Translations under genes and position numbers: made by a program
Source of the DNA: Candidatus Anderseniibacteriota bacterium
GTDB taxonomy: Bacteria > Patescibacteriota > Andersenbacteria > UBA10190
Assembly (NCBI GenBank): GCA_040900375.1
Contig: JBBDZC010000012.1
Location: 39,301-103,300 of the forward strand
DNA: 64,000 nucleotides
Direction of reading: 5' to 3'
Notes under the pieces: model-generated
Told to the model about the DNA's origin: nothing
The model's database searches: none
The model's input: the letters and a program-made list of their open reading frames with translations, nothing else
In this document: positions 2,895-46,024 of the stretch, in pieces
How positions within the stretch are numbered: position 1 is the first letter of the stretch
Layout: each line of letters begins with the position of its first letter

Positions 2895-3848
2895 TTAAAG
2901 GCGACTTAAAATATCATTTAAGGACGCGGGTAGTTCTTGGACACGGACAAGGGGCGTTTGGCTGACAATGTCATAGACAGAAGGCAGGTAGCGCGCTGAC
3001 TGCACGATAATGCGCAGTCGTTGGCCGACAAAGCGAGATGAAGGCAGCAGCCGCACCTCTATCACTCCAGGGTGGCCGCGGAGCTTGCGCAAAACGTCAT
3101 ACCGCAAACCCTCGATCCAAACATCAAGAATGCGCGGACAAGCTAAGGCATTGGCAATCTCATTGCATGTGCCTAAATGCGCCAGAGTAGCTTGGTGGAG
3201 AAGCACCATGGGCCAGTCTAACGTTTCAGCGGTAGCGACAAATCGCGTGGCAACAATAATAGTGCGGTTAGGAAAGAGTGAGGGTAATAAACTCTTGAGC
3301 GGTAGAACACCGAGCTGATCGGCAGTATCATCAAGTAAGATGAGCGGGGCATCCGAGAGGGCCGCACGCGCGAGATTAAGACGCAGCCGCTCGGCCGTAG
3401 AAAGTAAACGAGCAGACCGATGCATAACCGAGTTTAATTGTACCAGGTCACTAATCTCACCAATGCGGGCTGGCAGACTGGTAATCTGATGAGTAGTGCC
3501 AAAAGCTTGGAGAACCTCAAACGCGCTCTCGTGCGCAGGTTCCGACTCTTCGGCCGAAACATACCCAGCTGCTAAATCTTTAACTTTATGGGGGGCCACG
3601 CCATTAACATGAATTGTACCCTTGCTCGCTGCCGTTATACCGGCCAGAAGCCGCAGTAACGTAGTTTTGCCTGCTCCTTCACGGCCGAAAACGGTCACGC
3701 AGTCACTTTGATTTAGGCGTAAATTGATGTCGCGCAAGACAGAGTGAGGGTGAGGAGACCGGCCGAAAAGTGAAGTCAGGAAGGAGGATTGGGGCTGATA
3801 GTCGACGTAGACATGGCGCAGATCAACAAACGAAGGCTGGTGGTCCAT
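2895..3848 (-). CDS. ABC-type ATPase with degenerate signature motif; the ORF as listed extends to 3956, but the likely start is Met at 3848 (MDHQPSF...)
   Basis: Walker A GREGAGKTTLLRLLAG is present. The signature reads LSTAERLRL instead of LSGGQ. Walker B reads LILLDDTAD, so the catalytic Glu is replaced by Asp. A C-terminal extension of about 100 aa follows. Confidence 0.65.
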   Translation of the reverse strand: MDHQPSFVDLRHVYVDYQPQSSFLTSLFGRSPHPHSVLRDINLRLNQSDCVTVFGREGAGKTTLLRLLAGITAASKGTIHVNGVAPHKVKDLAAGYVSAEESEPAHESAFEVLQAFGTTHQITSLPARIGEISDLVQLNSVMHRSARLLSTAERLRLNLARAALSDAPLILLDDTADQLGVLPLKSLLPSLFPNRTIIVATRFVATAETLDWPMVLLHQATLAHLGTCNEIANALACPRILDVWIEGLRYDVLRKLRGHPGVIEVRLLPSSRFVGQRLRIIVQSARYLPSVYDIVSQTPLVRVQELPASLNDILSRL

Positions 3849-3976
3849 GCAGGCTAGTATATCATACTGCCCTTGGGTTAGGCGCCCGGCAGTGGACAAA
3901 AAATAAAGGGTGGCGGTATGGTAATTGCAGAAGATTGTTCTCTTTAACCAATCCACCCAATTCGGGAGGAAAAATC

Positions 3977-4552
3977 ATGACGCAAGCTCTGGCTGTCGAA
4001 AAGATAGTGGAAAAACTTTGCGCCTTCTTCACTCCACCCCGTTCCCATCTCATTCTCAATCAAAAGCAATACAAAAGATTGAACACTCCCGTCTATGTGA
4101 TGGCGGTGTGGCAAGGGCAGAGCAGAAATTTTGCTTTTCCGGTCGATGAACCGATGGACGCTGACATTCTTCCCCGTACTTTCACACTGACCAAGTCTGA
4201 TGATTTAGCAGTATTCATGCTCGGCAGTGCGGCGGAAGTATTGAATGCCAGAGTGAGGCACCTCACTGCTTTTCTTGGCCATCGCTCACCGAATTTGCAT
4301 CTACCGGCTGACTCGACGCTGGACTACTTGACTGCCGCCGAGACCAATAACCAACTTGATACACTAGAGCAGCTTGGCGAAGTTGAGGTTGGCCTCGATA
4401 TACATGTTGCTCTGCCAGGGACAATGCAGGCGCCAAGGTGCTTTAAATCAGTGGTTCGGGCGGTGCCTTTGGCCGCGCTGTTTACTCCGGCACAGTTGGC
4501 GCAGGCACTCCAAGTGGACCAGCCAAAGCTGCGATTTCGAGAGTTTTTCTAA
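3977..4552 (+). CDS. Hypothetical protein (start chosen at ATG 3977, preceded by GGAGG)
   Basis: The ORF 3770..4552 has its 5' part antisense to the ABC ATPase. An internal ATG with a GGAGG Shine-Dalgarno 8 nt upstream gives a 191-aa product with no recognised motif. Confidence 0.4.
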   Translation: MTQALAVEKIVEKLCAFFTPPRSHLILNQKQYKRLNTPVYVMAVWQGQSRNFAFPVDEPMDADILPRTFTLTKSDDLAVFMLGSAAEVLNARVRHLTAFLGHRSPNLHLPADSTLDYLTAAETNNQLDTLEQLGEVEVGLDIHVALPGTMQAPRCFKSVVRAVPLAALFTPAQLAQALQVDQPKLRFREFF

Positions 4553-4604
4553 AGCGCAGACCATGAGAGCCCCCACGTCGATCAGGGAAGACGACGTGGG
4601 ATTT

Positions 4605-5195
4605 TTAATTGTGAGACTCGGCGGGCGGCGGGAGAGGTGTCCCTGTTGTTACGGGCGTTTGCCAAGCTTGCTTGGCGGATAGGCGAGCGCCGAGTAACCC
4701 GGGAACATACTGAATGGCTAAAAATAAACTAAAGGTAAAAATCATGTCGCCAAAGAGCGTGTTGCGGAAGAAGGGCAGGGCATAGAGATACGATAAGATA
4801 AGGCCGTCGAGCGTGCGGGCATACATGCCTGACCACCACCACACCGCGGCATTCGTCACGAGATAAAATAACACCGAGCTTATAACAGTCACGCCGATGG
4901 TCCGCCAGGGCCGAAAACTGCCATGAAGCAGGTGGCCGAGTAAGGCAATAAGGCCAAAGCAGCTATAAACTGCCACCGTGATTTCGATTTGGTCAAAGCC
5001 GATCATGGTGTCGGAAATGAACATGGCAACCAACGGCAGGGCGAGAGCCAGAGGAACACTCACCATAGATCCAGCGACAAGTGCCAGGGCGGCTATGGGT
5101 GCCACGTTAGGAATATGCTCGCTCACCCGGGCGGCAACGGAGAAAATAACGAGGCTTATCATTAACAAGAAAGTATAAAATTGCGATAATCTCAT
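4605..5195 (-). CDS. Small polytopic membrane protein, ECF-transporter S-component-like (about 6 TM, 196 aa)
   Basis: Six predicted hydrophobic helices in about 190 aa, the size and topology of ECF substrate-capture subunits. Lies 3' of the DUF4430 operon on the same strand. Confidence 0.45.
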   Translation of the reverse strand: MRLSQFYTFLLMISLVIFSVAARVSEHIPNVAPIAALALVAGSMVSVPLALALPLVAMFISDTMIGFDQIEITVAVYSCFGLIALLGHLLHGSFRPWRTIGVTVISSVLFYLVTNAAVWWWSGMYARTLDGLILSYLYALPFFRNTLFGDMIFTFSLFLAIQYVPGLLGARLSAKQAWQTPVTTGTPLPPPAESHN

Positions 5196-5204
5196 ATCAC
5201 CACC

Positions 5205-7301
5205 TTAGAGCACGTTAAGCTTAGCGAGCAAGCGCGTCAGCGTTACCCCCACGCCAATATTCGCTAATCCAAAGAGAGCAAAGGCAAACCGGTGATCAGT
5301 TGCCGTCACTGGCACAGGCGGAGTAAGCGAGGAGGAAAGTGGTGGCGTAACGCGCGGCGATGATAGCGGAGAGATTATCGGTGACGATAGAGCCGCTTGG
5401 GTAGCCAATCTCTCATCGGGGCCGGCGAGGCTCTGGTAGTAAGGAGAGGGCGACATAACGGGGACGCTGGTGGTGGTGCCGGCTGCTCTTGCGACGGGCG
5501 GCACGGAAATTTGAGTCGCAAGGAGAGAAGAGTCGTCGGTGGTAATTTGGCCGCCCACAATATCAGTAATCACTGGCAGGGTCGTAACCGGCCACGGCGT
5601 ACCGAGAAGAGCGACTGCTGCGTACGCTGTCATAAAAGCCGACACATCGGTATGTGACCGCCACCCAAAACCACCGGTGGCTGATTGATACCGCAGCAGA
5701 GCATGCCAGGGTGTGGCGCCGGTAGTATTTTGCCAATCGTTGGGATTCTCACCTAGGGCAATAATGGCTTGCAGAGCCCACGCCGTGCTGGCCGAGTTTT
5801 CGCCAAAGCCACCATACTGATCTTGATTAAGCTGCAAGTAGTGCCGCGCGCGCTCGAGCGCCTCCTGAACATTATGCTCGCCACCCTGTCGCTGATAGGC
5901 TTGCAGGGCTTGGGTCGCCGCGGCGGTAATATCAATGCCTACCCACGAACCGTTCGCTGTCTGCTTGGTAAGAATTGTTTGGACGGTGGCGGCAATCGGG
6001 TTACCGCTGACTGGCTCACCGGCGGCCAGCAGAGCGAGAACTCCAAAAATATCATCATTCACGAGTGTTTCTTCGCCAATTTGATTGTGGTGATAGTAGC
6101 CTTTGAGCTTCGTAACTAAGTTTTGGCCGCCGAAGCGCCGCGGGTCACCGCCCCCCGCTCGCACCGCCAATACGAGCCGTTCTACATCTAGAGCGGATTC
6201 AAGAGACGTCCGGGCGAGCGCGTGGGCCAAACTATTGCTACCGACCGTAACGGCGCTGGCTCGTTCATTATTAGCTCCAAAGGCAATGGCACTCCACGCC
6301 GAGGTAATTTGACCATCAATACTGCCGTCACCCTGCTGGCGGGCGCGCAGATAACGGAGCGCTTGGGCAGCGCGCTCTTGCCGGTCAGTCGTTGTTATTC
6401 CAGCCACGTGCCCGGGTGGGGGAGTGGGGGATGGAGATAGTGTTGGTATCGCTGGAGTCGGTGAGGGACTGGGTAATGGTGACGGGAAAAGACTGGGGCT
6501 AGGAGAGCTACTGGCAACAGGGCTTGGGGAAGGGCTTAGAGATGGCGAGGGGGTGGGAGTGGGAGAGGATATGGGACTCGGTGAAGGCACAAGCACGGTG
6601 ACTACCTGGCGAGCACTGCGGATAAAAGTAGGGCCGGAAGCCTCAATAGTTAATTCACCAGGGGTGGGGGTGATGATCACCACGCCATCAGCGCCAACTT
6701 CGTGTGACTTGTCATTGACATGTAGGGTAGCGCCGCCAGCATTTTCCCACTGTCCGTGCCAGTTAAAATTTTCATCGTAGTCACCCACACGCTGCTCAAC
6801 CAAAATTTCCGCGGGTTGATCAGCATTTATGGGAGATGGCAAAGTGACGCGCAGGGGAACGCCCGGAAAAGCAGCAAAGGCTAACAGGAGATCATCTCCG
6901 GACTGGGGAGTGTAGCTATCTATCCCAACAGCCGCCGGGTCATAATTGACAAAAAATCCCCAGGATTTTGAGAAATCTGCAGGTGTGTCGTCATTGCCAA
7001 TTCGTTTGAGGAAAAGGCCAAAGCCAAAATCCTGAAATTCATAGGTTAAACCCGTAGCTTCCGCGGCAGCAACTAATGCGCAAGCACCCACTGAACTCAA
7101 CTCATGGGCAACTCCCGTCGTATCTACCACCGTGCAGTCACCAGCAGCGACGTGACCGGCGAACAGGGTGGCGGCGCTGCCCTCAATGCGCAGGTGGACA
7201 GTGGTGGCCGCGCGTACCGGAACAAATGTAACCGCAATGGCGCCGGTCGTGAGGATAAAGAACAGCCCGGCAGCGACAACGCGGTGAATGTTTTCTCTCA
7301 T
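5205..7301 (-). CDS. Cell-surface protein: signal peptide, DUF4430-like domain, Pro/Ser-rich linker, prenyltransferase/squalene-oxidase-like alpha/alpha-toroid repeats, C-terminal TM anchor
   Basis: N-terminal hydrophobic signal. The motif ...SWGFFVNYDPAAVGIDSYTPQSGDDLLLAF resembles DUF4430. A long PSPSP linker follows. QGDGS/GGFG repeats (QGDGSIDGQITSAWSAI, QTANGSWVG, YGGFGENSASTAWALQAI, TGGFGWRSHTDVSAF) are typical of terpenoid-cyclase/prenyltransferase repeats. The C-terminus is hydrophobic. Confidence 0.7.
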   Translation of the reverse strand: MRENIHRVVAAGLFFILTTGAIAVTFVPVRAATTVHLRIEGSAATLFAGHVAAGDCTVVDTTGVAHELSSVGACALVAAAEATGLTYEFQDFGFGLFLKRIGNDDTPADFSKSWGFFVNYDPAAVGIDSYTPQSGDDLLLAFAAFPGVPLRVTLPSPINADQPAEILVEQRVGDYDENFNWHGQWENAGGATLHVNDKSHEVGADGVVIITPTPGELTIEASGPTFIRSARQVVTVLVPSPSPISSPTPTPSPSLSPSPSPVASSSPSPSLFPSPLPSPSPTPAIPTLSPSPTPPPGHVAGITTTDRQERAAQALRYLRARQQGDGSIDGQITSAWSAIAFGANNERASAVTVGSNSLAHALARTSLESALDVERLVLAVRAGGGDPRRFGGQNLVTKLKGYYHHNQIGEETLVNDDIFGVLALLAAGEPVSGNPIAATVQTILTKQTANGSWVGIDITAAATQALQAYQRQGGEHNVQEALERARHYLQLNQDQYGGFGENSASTAWALQAIIALGENPNDWQNTTGATPWHALLRYQSATGGFGWRSHTDVSAFMTAYAAVALLGTPWPVTTLPVITDIVGGQITTDDSSLLATQISVPPVARAAGTTTSVPVMSPSPYYQSLAGPDERLATQAALSSPIISPLSSPRVTPPLSSSLTPPVPVTATDHRFAFALFGLANIGVGVTLTRLLAKLNVL

Positions 7302-7900
7302 TGCCCGTCCTCCATGTGCATCGCTTCATACTGCCAGCTGATTTGATCGCCCAGATTGACGATGGCATTAGAGGCTCCAAGCGGGGAACGAGTGCTATTG
7401 ATGTAGAGATACCAATAAAGTTGCTGGGTAGGATCATTGGCGAGGCCGTTAATAGATTCTACGAGCAGCCCAAGGGATCCGCCGAAATCTTTGGTAGTCA
7501 TAGTGAGACCATGCGCCGCCGCCGCGTTCATAACTTCAATTACCGTCCGGGGCGCAGTCGTGGCTACTTGATAATCGGTATTCTGGCCCTGCGCTGCTAT
7601 ACGTAAGCCCACTGTTTCTGTGGGTGCACTGGCTGTCGTTACGACAGCTGTCGTGGAGGGAGGGAGAACTACTGGAGCCACTGAAGCAGTGGCGGAAAAG
7701 GTGGCGGTGGCCGGTGTGGTTGCCAGAGATGGGGGTGTTTCACTGGCTGGTTGCTGGGGCCAGCGAGTGAGTACGAAACCGAGGATGATGACCAGCGGGA
7801 CAAGAATAGCGAGGATAATAGCTTCCCCCTGAATTAAACCTGTTTGTCCATTTTTTCTATAGGGTGGCGCCCCAGAGAGAAGATCGGCAATTTTCTTCAT
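7298..7900 (-). CDS. Membrane-anchored DUF4430-like protein
   Basis: N-terminal TM helix, Thr/Ala/Pro-rich linker, and a C-terminal domain with LYWYLYINSTRSPLGASNAIVNLGDQISWQY (DUF4430-like W.Y.N/GAS/GD..W.Y pattern). The stop overlaps the start of the downstream gene (ATGA), consistent with an operon. Confidence 0.65.
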   Translation of the reverse strand: MKKIADLLSGAPPYRKNGQTGLIQGEAIILAILVPLVIILGFVLTRWPQQPASETPPSLATTPATATFSATASVAPVVLPPSTTAVVTTASAPTETVGLRIAAQGQNTDYQVATTAPRTVIEVMNAAAAHGLTMTTKDFGGSLGLLVESINGLANDPTQQLYWYLYINSTRSPLGASNAIVNLGDQISWQYEAMHMEDGQ

Positions 7901-7905
7901 GATAA

Positions 7906-7944
7906 TAATAGTGATAAAAAAATTAACCTCTGCCCAAGACAGAG
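7906..7944 (-). terminator. Intrinsic terminator/attenuator in the 5' leader of the DUF4430 operon (putative riboswitch expression platform)
   Basis: On the minus strand: CCUCUG-ucuuggg-CAGAGG followed by UUAAUUUUUUUAU, directly upstream of the ATG at 7900. Confidence 0.45.
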
Positions 7945-8100
7945 GATATTTTTACACCACTAGTAGTGGATTCCTGCTCGGGAGAGTGACACGTTAGCGA
8001 AGGATCGGACTTTAACCCCTTGACTAGCTCGGGGTAAACCGTTGCGGCACAGTGTGGGAATTACACCCACTTCACTTCACAAACAATTTTTAATTGGCAA
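7930..8100 (-). promoter_or_regulatory. Candidate cobalamin (B12) riboswitch in the operon leader
   Basis: Minus-strand RNA reads ...GUGAAGUGGGUGUAAUUCCCACACUGUGCCGCAACGGUUUACCCCGAG...GAGCAGGAAUCCAC... This parallels the cobalamin-riboswitch core (GGUG.AA.UCC...C.G.CCCGC.AC.GU) and the B12-box (GCCAGGAGACCUGCC-like GCAGGAAUCCAC). A terminator hairpin follows. Confidence 0.4.
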
Positions 8101-8192
8101 CGAATTGCTTACTTATTAGTATTCCTAAAGTTGCGAAGCGGTCAAGTAAGAATGAATGAATTTTTCCACATAGTGTTTGGAAATCAATACTG

Positions 8193-8265
<73 letters not shown>

Positions 8266-8367
8266 ATAACCAAATGTGGGCGTACCTCACTATACGACGC
8301 AGATACCACCCCCGCAAGCATGCTGCCGCGCTATCTTTACAGGAGGATTGTCCCTGGGTATGCTTAG

Positions 8368-9072
8368 GTGTTTATGATGTCCATATGTCGTGGGGAAAGA
8401 ATATCCCCCTTAGGTTTTCTCTTTGTTGCCTGCGCACTCGTGAGTGCCTCCTGGGGACACGTGTTGCCTGATCATGTACTTGCGCAAGAAAGTTCAGCGG
8501 CAGTCGTTTTCCAGATAACCGATGATCGACACGCCGTGCAGCCGGGCGAGAGCGTTGTGTTTCGCGTTACCGCCCGCAACTCGCAAAGCAGTGATGCTGG
8601 GGGAGTACGAATCACTGCTCATATTCCTGATTACCTCGTGCCGCTCTCTACTTCGCCAGCGGTTATTGCAAATCCCGATGCCCGCACGTTGACGTGGGAG
8701 AATATTACTCTGCCGGCGCGAGCTGAACAAACTTTTTCCTTCCGTGCCCAAATCGCCCAAGAAACACCTCCTAACACCATGCTGCGCACTGCCGCCGAGA
8801 TTATTGGTCCGGGGGTGCGCAGTAATTCTACGGACACTACACTTGTGGAATCAGTGCCGTTTATTGTGACCGAACAAGCAGCTACCACCACTGCTCCAAG
8901 TGTAGTGACTACACCGGTGCCACCAGCGGTTGTGCCCACGGCCCGCACTGGTCCAGCACATGGTCTGGCTATAGCGAGCCTGGCGCTCGTACTAGCGGCG
9001 GCGGCAGGACGGGCTGCCTACCAACAAACAGGGGTATCTGTCCATAATTTTCGCCCATTCTCCCAATTTTAG
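8368..9072 (+). CDS. Secreted/anchored surface protein, DUF11-like repeat domain (true start probably an internal Met)
   Basis: N-terminal hydrophobic segment, a beta-rich domain with a GGVRITAHIP...TFSF pattern reminiscent of DUF11/CARDB surface repeats, a Thr/Pro-rich linker and a C-terminal hydrophobic anchor. Confidence 0.5.
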   Translation: MFMMSICRGERISPLGFLFVACALVSASWGHVLPDHVLAQESSAAVVFQITDDRHAVQPGESVVFRVTARNSQSSDAGGVRITAHIPDYLVPLSTSPAVIANPDARTLTWENITLPARAEQTFSFRAQIAQETPPNTMLRTAAEIIGPGVRSNSTDTTLVESVPFIVTEQAATTTAPSVVTTPVPPAVVPTARTGPAHGLAIASLALVLAAAAGRAAYQQTGVSVHNFRPFSQF

Positions 9073-9169
9073 CGTTAAGGATGTTAAAAATGGCAGGGAA
9101 ATGTCATTGCTCCTCTAATAGAGCCGCGTTATCGTAAGGAAATATTCATTACCTAACTAGATTTAAGAG

Positions 9170-9799
9170 ATGACGAGTGCAGCCATTATTACGATTGTGG
9201 TCGCCGTAACTATTGTCGCGGGCAGTACAGCCCTAGGGACGTACTACTGGCGTACTTCATCCACAACACCTCGCCCCGCATCTGTAGCAATATCTTTGCC
9301 GTCGGTTGCTCCTACACCTCCCGCCAGCCCTGACGTCAAGGAAGGCGACGAACAGACAGTGACAAGCCCCCTGGTCCAGGGCACGAGCCAGCAGGTTGTT
9401 CCGTCGCCCGCACCATCATCCTTGTCAGTAGCAATCTCGCCCCCGCCTGCCGCGACCGATTCTTCAGCCTCGTTTATGCTCGATTTTATGGATACTCCCG
9501 ATACCATCCGTACCGGGCAATCTTTTACAGTGCGGTGGCGCGTGACGGGACCCGCGGGAGCAGCAGGGGAGAAGACTGCTCTTAAAGTTTCATTAGCGAC
9601 TAACTCTGCCAATAATGGCAGCCAGGCGGCGACTACAAATAATACGACTAATTCCTTCGGCCCATTTATAGTGCCGCGCACATTTTCCAGCGACTTTAAA
9701 TTTGGTAATGCGCCAGGTACAATCAATGTAGAAATCACCGCCAACATTGGCGGCCAAGAACTACGGCAAACTAAGGCCATCCAATTAACACCTGCCTAG
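9170..9799 (+). CDS. Signal-anchored Pro/Ser-rich secreted hypothetical protein
   Basis: N-terminal TM (IITIVVAVTIVAGSTALG), PS-rich low-complexity region, C-terminal globular domain. No catalytic motif. Confidence 0.45.
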   Translation: MTSAAIITIVVAVTIVAGSTALGTYYWRTSSTTPRPASVAISLPSVAPTPPASPDVKEGDEQTVTSPLVQGTSQQVVPSPAPSSLSVAISPPPAATDSSASFMLDFMDTPDTIRTGQSFTVRWRVTGPAGAAGEKTALKVSLATNSANNGSQAATTNNTTNSFGPFIVPRTFSSDFKFGNAPGTINVEITANIGGQELRQTKAIQLTPA

Positions 9800-9866
9800 C
9801 AACTCAACGAGAAGCAGTGCCAGTAGTGGACGACAGTGCTAATGGCAACGTATACTTTTTCGTATC

Positions 9867-10625
9867 ATGGCAGACAATGTTATACCCACGACCCAATCCG
9901 GAAAACTACTTGGATTTGTTATTGTTGCCGGACTCTTTTATTTAGCGGGGCAGTATATTGCTTCAGCGCCCCAGCGTGCTTCTCAAGAGCAGGAAGCAGA
10001 ACGCCAAATTACCGTCTCGGGTCGCGGTGAAGTGCACAGTCGGCCTGACATCGCATATCTTACTTTAGGCGTCAATACGGGCGTGCGGCCATCGGCCGAA
10101 GAGGCATTAGGCCACTTAAGCGACCGCTTTACCGCCGTGGTCACGGCAGTGAAAGGCGCCGGGGTAGCCGAGGACGATATCACGACTACCAATGTATCCA
10201 TTAATCCGGTCTATGACTATGTCGAGGGCCGACAAATTCTTCGCGGCTTCGAAGCCCAGGAGTCTATCCGAGTAAAAATTCGCGAACTTAACCGCATTGG
10301 GGAAGTATTAACGCGGAGTACGATTGAAGGCGTTAATCAAGCTGGCGGAATTTCCTTTGCGATTGATGATGCCGAGGCGCTCCAACAAGAAGCGCAAGAA
10401 CAGGCGATCGCAGACGCCCAAGAAAAAGCGGAACAACTGGCGCGCGCGTTACAAGTCCGCTTAGGGTCCGTTAAATCTTTTTCCTCATCGCCCTCACCTC
10501 AAGACCCGCCAATTTTATACGAGCGAGCAGCCCTCGAGGCGGCGGGGAGTGCGGCTGCGCTTCCGGTGCCCCCAGGTTCGCAAGATATCGTGGCTCAAGT
10601 CACCATTACCTATGAACTACGCTAG
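9867..10625 (+). CDS. SIMPL/DUF541-family periplasmic protein
   Basis: N-terminal TM followed by ITVSGRGEVHSRPDIAYLTLGVNT...DITTTNVSINPVYDY..., characteristic of DUF541 (26-kDa periplasmic immunogenic protein family). Confidence 0.75.
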   Translation: MADNVIPTTQSGKLLGFVIVAGLFYLAGQYIASAPQRASQEQEAERQITVSGRGEVHSRPDIAYLTLGVNTGVRPSAEEALGHLSDRFTAVVTAVKGAGVAEDDITTTNVSINPVYDYVEGRQILRGFEAQESIRVKIRELNRIGEVLTRSTIEGVNQAGGISFAIDDAEALQQEAQEQAIADAQEKAEQLARALQVRLGSVKSFSSSPSPQDPPILYERAALEAAGSAAALPVPPGSQDIVAQVTITYELR

Positions 10626-45070: not shown

Positions 45071-46024
45071 TTACAGCTGGAGACGCTCCACCATAGCTTG
45101 CGTACGGGTAATCGTAAAGAGCTGTGCTTCTTGCCCAAGTTGGACACTTAAGGCAATGAGCCCTAGCGTGGGCCAGACGATAAAGGGTACCAACACCCGG
45201 AAGGTTAGAAAGATAATAATCATCAAGAGGATGGAAGCAATTAGAGGATTTTGACTGGTTAACTCATTAATCTGGCGATTAATGAGGCCGGCTACGATGG
45301 TAGAAAAGCTTTCTTGACCACTTAGATTTTGGCCGAGCCGCTGGGCAATTTCTTGTCGCGAACGCTGCAATTGCTGTTCATCAATTATATACCCCGGAGG
45401 CAGTTTCTTTCGTTCTTCGGCAATGCTTGCTTCGAGCAACTCGTCAAAGGAAGTCTGCGGCGTATAACCAGGAAAGAAATCATTAATAATTGGATCAAAG
45501 GGTTTTAAGAGAGGTTCTATTTGGCGTTCAGTAATCTGAAACCGCGCCTGGGCCACCGAGTTAGTAATCAGTGGCCAGGCGACACCGAGTAAAGCAATCA
45601 TGAGACCCAGGGTTAACAACTGGACGCCACCCGGGAATATTTGAGTAATACGATAGTACACCCGATTATGAACTTCGCGAACGATTGTCCGCTGCGCCAT
45701 AGCCATAAAAACAACCAGCAACACTGCGGCGCCAATGCCGACTGGTGACAGTATACTGAAGGCGACAACCATGAGCGCGGGAACCAGGTAGAGGGCGGCG
45801 AGGCTAGCGGGCCGACGAAGGATCGATAAGCAGAGCGCCATGAGCATGATCCACACCAGCGCTAGTAAAATAATTACCAGAGCATACCACCCGTGCTGCA
45901 GCGAGAGCGGCAACAGAAGCATCATTGCCGCAAACGGCAACAGGCTATAGCTGCAGACAAAAATGACCAGCGCTAATTCTTTTTGGTAGGCAGTCATGTC
46001 CTTATAGTGTAGCGCACTCATCAA
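45071..46024 (-). CDS. Polytopic membrane protein inserted between dnaK and dnaJ (possibly AI-2E/UPF0118-like)
   Basis: 317 aa, at least 7 hydrophobic helices with a central cytoplasmic loop. Family assignment is uncertain. Confidence 0.45.
   Translation of the reverse strand: MMSALHYKDMTAYQKELALVIFVCSYSLLPFAAMMLLLPLSLQHGWYALVIILLALVWIMLMALCLSILRRPASLAALYLVPALMVVAFSILSPVGIGAAVLLVVFMAMAQRTIVREVHNRVYYRITQIFPGGVQLLTLGLMIALLGVAWPLITNSVAQARFQITERQIEPLLKPFDPIINDFFPGYTPQTSFDELLEASIAEERKKLPPGYIIDEQQLQRSRQEIAQRLGQNLSGQESFSTIVAGLINRQINELTSQNPLIASILLMIIIFLTFRVLVPFIVWPTLGLIALSVQLGQEAQLFTITRTQAMVERLQL

Follow-up and report, generated by a model that had tools for sequence, protein, structure and literature searches.

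An operon of three minus-strand open reading frames (ORFs) in a 64-kb window of DNA from Candidatus Andersenbacteria, a member of the Candidate Phyla Radiation (CPR; Patescibacteria), probably encodes a cobalamin-repressed system for the capture and import of corrinoids; we put the probability of this reading at roughly 80%. The window is the whole stretch analysed (64,000 nucleotides (nt) of contig JBBDZC010000012.1), and all positions refer to it. The operon encodes two membrane-anchored surface proteins of 200 and 698 residues and a membrane protein of 196 residues with the fold of an energy-coupling factor (ECF) S-component. The first two ORFs share a 4-nt ATGA overlap, and the third begins 9 nt past the end of the second. 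The ORFs, the leader and the terminator described in an original prediction, made from the letters of the DNA alone, were all present where it had placed them, and the leader sequence that it quoted was exact. Searches of this genome covered the window, and the comparison set consisted of the loci of 79 genomes, fetched as relatives of the 698-residue protein (single loci are given as L and a number). The operon can be recognised as a version of a known system for B12 uptake, one that had not been described before, and the concept behind it was anticipated by earlier comparative genomics. Coordinates are collected in Table 1.

Table 1. Operon, leader RNA elements and upstream features in the window
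Feature	Position	Strand	Basis
tRNA-Arg(CCG) gene, upstream of promoter-like site and leader	8265-8192	-	
Promoter-like site TTGACC, 16 nt, AATACT	8118..8145	-	Consensus scan, sigma-70-like, 9/12 matches
Predicted cobalamin riboswitch aptamer	7993..8084	-	RF01482 alignment, covariation, leave-window-out model
Aptamer P1	8084-8075 with 8002-7993	-	
Aptamer T-loop hairpin GGUG..AA.UCC	8070-8054	-	
Aptamer L5 mini-hairpin UGU-GCC-GCA	8051-8043	-	
Aptamer CGG/CCG helix	8041-8039 with 8008-8006	-	
Aptamer extension hairpin	8034-8016	-	
B12-box-like AAGUCCGAUC	8012-8003	-	
P13-like hairpin UCC-CGAGCA-GGA	7983-7972	-	Stem covariation; loop nearly invariant
Intrinsic terminator: 8-bp stem CCUCUGUC/GGCAGAGG, 3-nt loop, then UUAAUUUUUUU	7916..7945	-	Terminator scan, minimum free energy (MFE) fold
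200-residue protein: N-terminal transmembrane anchor, Pro/Thr/Ala-rich low-complexity spacer, C-terminal DUF4430 (SLBB beta-grasp)	7298..7900	-	Pfam PF14478, E 3.6e-10, residues 119-192
698-residue surface protein, doubly anchored	5205..7301	-	AlphaFold2 (AF2) model, Foldseek, Pfam
196-residue six-helix membrane protein, DUF6580 (PF20221), ECF S-component fold; putative corrinoid translocator	4605..5195	-	Pfam E 9e-37

Cobalamin riboswitch in the leader

A scan of the whole window at Rfam gathering thresholds returned three tRNAs and nothing else, and the same thresholds applied to the window together with 19 related loci gave a single cobalamin match, in L020 (RF00174, 34.8 bits). On these results the riboswitch claim might have failed; searching with the leader itself reversed this. 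With nhmmer, sequence homologous to the window leader was found in about 25 of the 79 loci, always on the gene strand and just upstream of the gene. A covariance model built from a 20-leader alignment gave 46 matches, one in the window and the others in 45 of the 79 loci, and the window element, at 96.7 bits, scored third-highest among all copies. A second model, from which the window was left out (21 leaders from other genomes), had exactly one match in the 64 kb, at 7970-8090 on the minus strand (88.8 bits, E 2e-21).

The link to known riboswitches came from Rfam. When the leader alone was searched locally with permissive filters, the adenosylcobalamin (AdoCbl) model RF01482 matched over its full length (33.8 bits, E 1e-4); the Rfam check suggested with the original prediction thus yielded a full-length match, at a score below the gathering score of 50 bits. 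Gathering scores were passed by homologous copies in related loci: that of RF01482 by L077 (63.5) and L033 (53.7), that of RF00174 by L030 (40.9), L023 (40.8), L075 (35.9) and L020, and that of RF01689 by L037 (38.1) and L061 (38.0).

The predicted structure was examined by writing five helices onto a MAFFT alignment of 20 leaders that had not been fitted to any structure. In this alignment 83.5% of the cells were paired, vs. 42-50% after sliding the 3' partners, and both-sided changes occurred in 17 of 25 pairs; the observed values were reached by none of 500 shuffles. At the middle pair of the CNG/CNG helix, G-C, A-U, U-A and C-G were all seen. Extension to 48 sequences gave 85% paired cells and both-sided changes in 21 of the 25 pairs. 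The conserved core and its helices (P1, T-loop hairpin, L5 hairpin, P6 and B12 box) are thus supported by covariation. Because of its recurrence, the covariation, the link to the Rfam clan and the leave-window-out model, the minus-strand leader (8084-7972) is solidly predicted to be a cobalamin-clan riboswitch followed by an intrinsic terminator, as had been proposed originally.

With the other riboswitches of Rfam clan CL00101 the element shares the GGUG..AA.UCC T-loop, the GCCGCAAC(N)GU junction, the AAGUCCGA B12 box and P1. It differs from them in being compact, with only a short P6 extension, in the almost invariant CGAGCA of its 3' loop, and in that the window copy and many CPR copies score below the Rfam thresholds. 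What the window holds is just a compact form, scored too low by Rfam. Aptamers with a short P6 (class II) tend to prefer methylcobalamin or hydroxocobalamin. Copies in L007, L069 and L072 lack the P6 extension hairpin altogether (CAACGGU-UAAAGUCCG) and keep the remaining conserved elements and the CGAGCA hairpin, giving a minimal aptamer of about 75 nt. A weak second match to the riboswitch model (18 bits, E 0.06) was seen in L059 (6290-6342), just past the second operon gene. With its copy of the 3' hairpin motif, CCCCGAGCAGAG, this match might represent either a remnant or a regulatory hairpin within the operon.

Expression platform

Downstream of the aptamer, the helix of the P13-like 3' hairpin was 90% paired in the 48-sequence alignment with both-sided changes in all four pairs, and its stem occurs as UCC/GGA, CCCU/AGGG and CUUCU/AGAGG. 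Three pairs can be proposed between the GCC of L5 and the G(A)GC of the hairpin loop, and 96% of their cells are paired. One of the three varies (GC in 37 sequences, CG in L068 and L054, UA in L020 and L023, unpaired in three); the other two are invariant. This pairing may correspond, on thin evidence, to the L5-L13 kissing loop of known cobalamin riboswitches.

The terminator (CCUCUGUCUUGGGCAGAGG and its U-run) was also picked up independently by a pattern scan, at 7945-7927 on the minus strand, and a U-run of at least five within 110 nt downstream of the 3' hairpin was present in 28 of 31 homologous leaders. With its strand CCCGAGCAGG, the 3' hairpin complements both the 5' arm and the loop of the terminator, and could provide the 5' strand of an antiterminator. 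Over 31 loci the energy of this duplex had a mean z of -1.7 relative to shuffled sequences, with z below -2 at 13 loci, and MFE folding gave the antiterminator in several relatives. For the window the duplex reached -13.6 kcal/mol vs. -9.6 kcal/mol for shuffled sequences, and 8 of 200 shuffles were equally good. These features suggest a standard OFF switch, in which the ligand would stabilise the kissing loop and the small hairpin, the terminator would form and transcription would stop; both the proposed L5-L13 contact and this terminator logic have their counterparts in clan CL00101.

The promoter-like site upstream is a pattern match only; it falls between the tRNA-Arg gene and the riboswitch, some 30 nt ahead of P1, and from this position we infer a possible promoter role.

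The leader could conversely be a degenerate riboswitch remnant, or an unrelated structured leader, with the operon expressed constitutively or regulated in some other way. The sub-threshold Rfam score and the default scan empty of riboswitches would fit such a state, as would the finding, on inspection of the sequence, that no clear Shine-Dalgarno lies between the terminator and the ATG at 7900. Against it, the conserved core elements are all intact, all helices pair and an intact terminator follows, and both family models score the window copy highly, including the one built without it. A remnant or unrelated leader is therefore extremely improbable, and we retain a working cobalamin riboswitch as the preferred reading.

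Anchored surface proteins

Both surface proteins had been predicted to carry DUF4430 domains, and Pfam bore this out. Orthologues of the 200-residue protein are encoded by the first gene after the riboswitch in loci of the window type. Its gene occupies the same slot as the DUF4430 'CbrS' genes beside cbrT.

The AF2 model of the 698-residue protein starts with a transmembrane or signal helix (residues 2-25), followed by a DUF4430 beta-grasp (33-153), a beta-sandwich (164-237), a disordered Pro/Ser linker (244-297), an alpha/alpha toroid (304-566), a second disordered stretch (583-665) and a C-terminal transmembrane helix (667-697). For the three domains (beta-grasp, beta-sandwich and toroid), the predicted local distance difference test (pLDDT) score was above 90. 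In Pfam, DUF4430 was recovered at E 3e-5 and Cobalamin_bind (PF01122) at 25.5 bits over a partial region, with a cut-off of 25.0; matches to terpene-cyclase/prenyltransferase toroid families were weaker. Foldseek placed the beta-grasp model close to the beta-domain of cyanocobalamin-bound human transcobalamin (5NP4, TM-score 0.77). The toroid matched transcobalamin (2BB5, 2V3N, 2BB6) at E about 1e-5, and slightly better matches were squalene-hopene cyclase and drimenyl diphosphate synthase (E 4e-7 to 8e-6); it also resembled the thioester domains of complement. Sequence searches of the PDB returned only low-complexity Pro/Thr matches for the 698-residue protein and none for the 200- and 196-residue proteins, and an NCBIfam search of the operon proteins gave no informative family.

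Homologues of the 698-residue protein numbered 44 at full length, mostly from CPR bacteria; among the relatives from the 79 genomes the family is also frequent in Dehalococcoidia, which are corrinoid auxotrophs. Thirty family members examined with Pfam contained DUF4430 (27/30), SQHop_cyclase_C (26/30) and Cobalamin_bind (9/30). AF2, Foldseek and Pfam thus agree in placing a toroid and an SLBB beta-grasp in one secreted protein, and the idea of a transcobalamin-like two-domain kit is right. The toroid does not appear to belong by sequence to the transcobalamin family in particular: Cobalamin_bind was found in only 9 of the 30 members, and in Foldseek the cyclases were slightly better matches; to that extent the architecture first proposed has to be qualified.

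The kit and its secreted or surface location are shared with transcobalamin, intrinsic factor and haptocorrin (PF01122 plus DUF4430). Unlike transcobalamin, the window protein has its beta-grasp ahead of the toroid, includes an additional beta-sandwich and a linker of about 55 residues, and is anchored in the membrane twice; its operon also has a separate gene for another DUF4430 protein. The canonical arrangement, in which the toroid precedes DUF4430, is found in most other CPR lineages, with an Ig-like protein encoded next. Burroughs et al. 2007 (PMC1796856) already listed bacterial surface proteins that combine SLBB and toroid domains in either order and predicted that they bind B12; to this prediction the present locus adds regulatory and genomic evidence. 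In the literature searched, neither ligand binding nor transport was reported for a bacterial DUF4430/toroid protein.

Two conserved sites were noted in the family of 30. In the N-terminal beta-grasp, His66 is invariant and flanked by invariant C56 and C74; the cysteines could form a disulfide and the histidine could be a candidate metal or cobalt ligand. In the toroid, N415-D416-D417 is nearly invariant and recalls, by sequence alone, the DxDD of class II terpene cyclases.

Going by the kinship of its toroid, the 698-residue protein might instead belong to the terpene-cyclase/prenyltransferase/thioester-domain superfamily as an enzyme acting outside the cell or as a structural protein of the envelope, and its co-transcription under B12 control would then serve envelope remodelling or host attachment. 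Cyclases as top Foldseek matches, the predominance of SQHop_cyclase_C over Cobalamin_bind, the N-D-D motif and the NCBI name (prenyltransferase/squalene oxidase repeat protein) are all in its favour, whereas the cyclase Pfam scores of the window protein itself lie without exception under their cut-offs, and a toroid held outside the cell by two transmembrane anchors and disordered stalks is away from isoprenoid diphosphate substrates. The toroid is moreover always fused or adjacent to DUF4430, is fused to S-components in other phyla, and is encoded behind B12 riboswitches. We regard an enzymatic or envelope role as very unlikely and a role in corrinoid capture as the better explanation.

DUF6580 membrane protein

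The 196-residue protein is a small six-helix membrane protein with an S-component fold, and only PF20221 was matched; the classical S-component families PF12822 and PF07155 were not. NCBI names the DUF6580 family 'putative transport protein'. A profile of 41 DUF6580 sequences had a sole PDB match, chain A of 6FNP (E 1e-6, over the N-terminal half); this entry holds the crystal structure of ECF-CbrT, which imports B12 (PMC5997447). DUF6580 and CbrT have in common an R-x(6)-PNV-x-P motif in the first helix-loop. Since this PDB match is single and distant, and relatives of CbrT fall in PF07155 or PF12822 and never in PF20221, DUF6580 is, judged by these profiles, a distinct and distantly related family with the S-component fold and not CbrT itself. 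The ECF-S-like character attributed to the protein at the outset therefore stands, and its membership of the CbrT family does not. One distant member of the DUF6580 family, P0128, also has PF07155.

Invariant residues of DUF6580 include R23, N30, P33, D62, N115, Y125 and R144, and H27 is nearly invariant; there is no invariant cysteine. This sets it apart from BtuM of Thiobacillus denitrificans (8OVV), a solitary S-component-like B12 transporter in which a cysteine is the cobalt ligand (PMC6072759); sequence identity is only 14%. The best structural matches of the operon proteins are B12-bound proteins (5NP4 and 8OVV). None of the literature searched reported ligand binding or transport for a DUF6580 protein.

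As an energizing subunit, the ATP-binding cassette (ABC) ATPase at 2895-3956 on the minus strand was considered and rejected: an opposite-strand gene call separates it from the operon, it is not conserved beside the operon in relatives, and it resembles ATPases of the CcmA/CydC type more than CbiO. The separating ORF (3977-4552, plus strand), between this ATPase and the DUF6580 gene, has no family match. The ATPase itself is an orphan with N- and C-terminal extensions, located between the operon and an FtsE/FtsX pair (1048-1728 and 1899-2852).

Genomic context in relatives

The order riboswitch, DUF4430, DUF4430-toroid, DUF6580 recurs in L002, L003, L004, L005, L008 and L009. In four of these (L002, L003, L004 and L009), a class II ribonucleotide reductase (RNR), NrdJ, with its RNR-II insertion domain, and a PduO-type adenosyltransferase are encoded directly downstream. 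Lactobacillus-type contigs (L083-L087) have NrdJ, DUF4430, DUF4430, CbrT and PduO in the cbrT neighbourhood. The DUF4430 (cbrS)-nrdJ-pduO neighbourhood is thus found in the same four loci, and the window itself has the DUF4430 neighbours only. Given the NrdJ/PduO linkage and the cbrT neighbourhood, the CPR operon can be described as the Lactobacillus parts list with DUF6580 in the slot of CbrT and a toroid added, and the proposal of a B12-scavenging module gains strong contextual support.

The closest characterised cluster is nrdJ-cbrS-cbrT-pduO of Lactobacillus delbrueckii (6FNP; PMC5997447), whose ECF-CbrT is an experimentally proven importer of B12 that also carries cobinamide (PMC5997447). 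Both systems place one or two small DUF4430 proteins beside a six-helix protein with the S-component fold; both are linked to class II RNR and PduO (on the CPR side, in the operons of the relatives); and CbrT is itself detected by the DUF6580 profile. They differ in the Pfam family of the membrane protein (PF20221 in the CPR operon, not PF07155/PF12822) and in the large toroid-bearing surface protein, which is added in the CPR operon. The window moreover holds no ECF module, and nrdJ and pduO are not adjacent to the operon in the window genome. A cobalamin riboswitch, present in the CPR operon, was not detected in the Lactobacillus-type loci.

Toroid fusions with DUF6580 or with an S-component occur in other lineages, where a double ABC ATPase is encoded alongside. 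An operon with an S-component-toroid fusion in L082 stands directly behind a canonical RF00174 riboswitch (60.9 bits). Its five genes (3504-9956) encode a 249-residue protein of no family, a 306-residue DUF4430 protein, a 311-residue protein of no family that is possibly an EcfT equivalent, the double ABC ATPase and the fusion, and look like a complete dedicated ECF-type B12 system of a non-CPR lineage. Within CPR, L031 (312-6565) has NrdJ, PduO and then a single very long ORF (3275-6565) with matches to the toroid as well as to the DUF6580 profile, apparently a transporter-toroid fusion; no riboswitch was detected in the L031 DNA compared.

In CPR operons of the toroid-then-DUF4430 type, a conserved secreted protein of about 165-200 residues follows the toroid gene and is the second gene after the riboswitch (L032, L033 at 2061-2552, L045, L050, L059, L060, L067, L074 and others). 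As an alternative transporter it was rejected, being an Ig-like/ASH-like secreted protein; its Pfam matches, of Ig-like, ASH, MSP and Cep192 type, are all sub-threshold. BtuH of Bacteroides is reported to bind B12 through a C-terminal domain (PMC8941943), so the secreted protein could be another corrinoid binder.

Proposed mechanism and its weighing

The leader RNA would fold into a compact aptamer with P1, the T-loop hairpin, the L5 mini-hairpin and a short P6. With B12 bound, the GCC loop of L5 would kiss the invariant CGAGCA loop of the small downstream hairpin, leaving the terminator free to form, and transcription would end before the ATG at 7900. Without B12, CCCGAGCAGG would pair with the 5' arm and loop of the terminator, and the operon would be transcribed. 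Its products would include two membrane-tethered extracellular proteins, a DUF4430 beta-grasp and a DUF4430-toroid on Pro/Ser stalks, which may together sandwich a corrinoid in the manner of the alpha and beta domains of transcobalamin and pass it to the DUF6580 protein. The latter might translocate it unaided, as BtuM does, or might rely on an ECF module whose genes lie elsewhere. The likely use would be adenosylation by PduO and then AdoCbl-dependent ribonucleotide reduction by NrdJ, as suggested by the continuing transcript region of close relatives.

Several observations weigh against this reading. The window aptamer lies under the gathering scores of RF00174, RF01482 and RF01689 alike; the kissing loop is supported by one covarying pair, in about three independent events; and the antiterminator is weak for the window taken alone (p about 0.04). 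The 698-residue protein reaches PF01122 only marginally and its toroid is as close to class II terpene cyclases as to transcobalamin, while DUF6580 is another Pfam family than that of CbrT, and no characterised member of it was found in literature searches. Of the 45 related loci with the riboswitch, just 13 have DUF6580 within the operon. Neither the operon nor the 64-kb window yielded an EcfT or EcfA candidate, and no NrdJ, PduO or other B12-dependent enzyme was found among the large and membrane ORFs of the window.

A further argument of this kind concerns the cargo. In L. sakei, an ECF-like operon with separate transcobalamin alpha- and beta-like subunits has been proposed, on the strength of docking and physiology, to be a heme importer (bioRxiv 10.1101/864751). 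Under the same riboswitch regulation, the CPR operon could likewise carry another tetrapyrrole or corrinoid precursor, such as heme or cobinamide, its expression merely being tuned by B12 status; that ECF-CbrT also accepts cobinamide (PMC5997447) and that His66, between its two invariant cysteines, could ligate the metal of either macrocycle would be compatible with this. Cobalamin riboswitch control in 45 related loci (and a canonical RF00174 riboswitch in L082), the B12-bound state of the best structural matches and the direct linkage to NrdJ and PduO, both of which need cobalamin specifically, speak against it. We consider a different cargo unlikely, if less so than the two alternatives discussed above, and favour cobalamin as the main substrate of the operon.

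CPR bacteria have minimal genomes and obtain cofactors from other cells, and many rely on a B12-dependent RNR for DNA synthesis. For these organisms the locus offers a concrete, testable route of B12 acquisition. Our literature searches on DUF6580 and on CPR cobalamin riboswitches retrieved nothing relevant, and what is new here is probably the combination of a compact cobalamin riboswitch missed by Rfam, a CPR kit of DUF4430 and S-component, a tethered transcobalamin-like toroid and a probable translocator of the DUF6580 family. The operon provides a functional hypothesis for DUF6580, that of a corrinoid-translocating relative of S-components. It also suggests what the DUF4430 'CbrS' proteins might do; these accompany the only Gram-positive-type B12 importer to have been characterised, and the literature searched describes no role for them. 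As the Rfam cobalamin models miss many CPR riboswitches, the 48-sequence alignment could seed a better one.

More speculatively, DUF6580 proteins might be widespread stand-alone corrinoid transporters, fed in CPR bacteria by tethered 'transcobalamins' that strip B12 from the environment or the host surface, and the riboswitch with the CGAGCA loop might be a distinct, CPR-adapted subclass with its own selectivity for ligand form. We hold this extension only tentatively and think it rather doubtful; if true, it would explain how AdoCbl-dependent RNR is kept up in ultra-small episymbionts without B12 synthesis or BtuCDF.

Neighbouring genes

Two divergent plus-strand genes lie upstream of the operon. 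The first (8368-9072) encodes an anchored or secreted protein with a DUF11 domain (E 1.6e-7) and a C-terminal transmembrane helix, the second (9170-9799) a protein of no family with an N-terminal transmembrane helix, likewise anchored or secreted; counting the operon, surface-protein genes are thus clustered in this region. Farther along the window, a minus-strand gene adjoining dnaJ and dnaK (45071-46024) encodes a 317-residue protein with about seven predicted transmembrane segments and no Pfam match.

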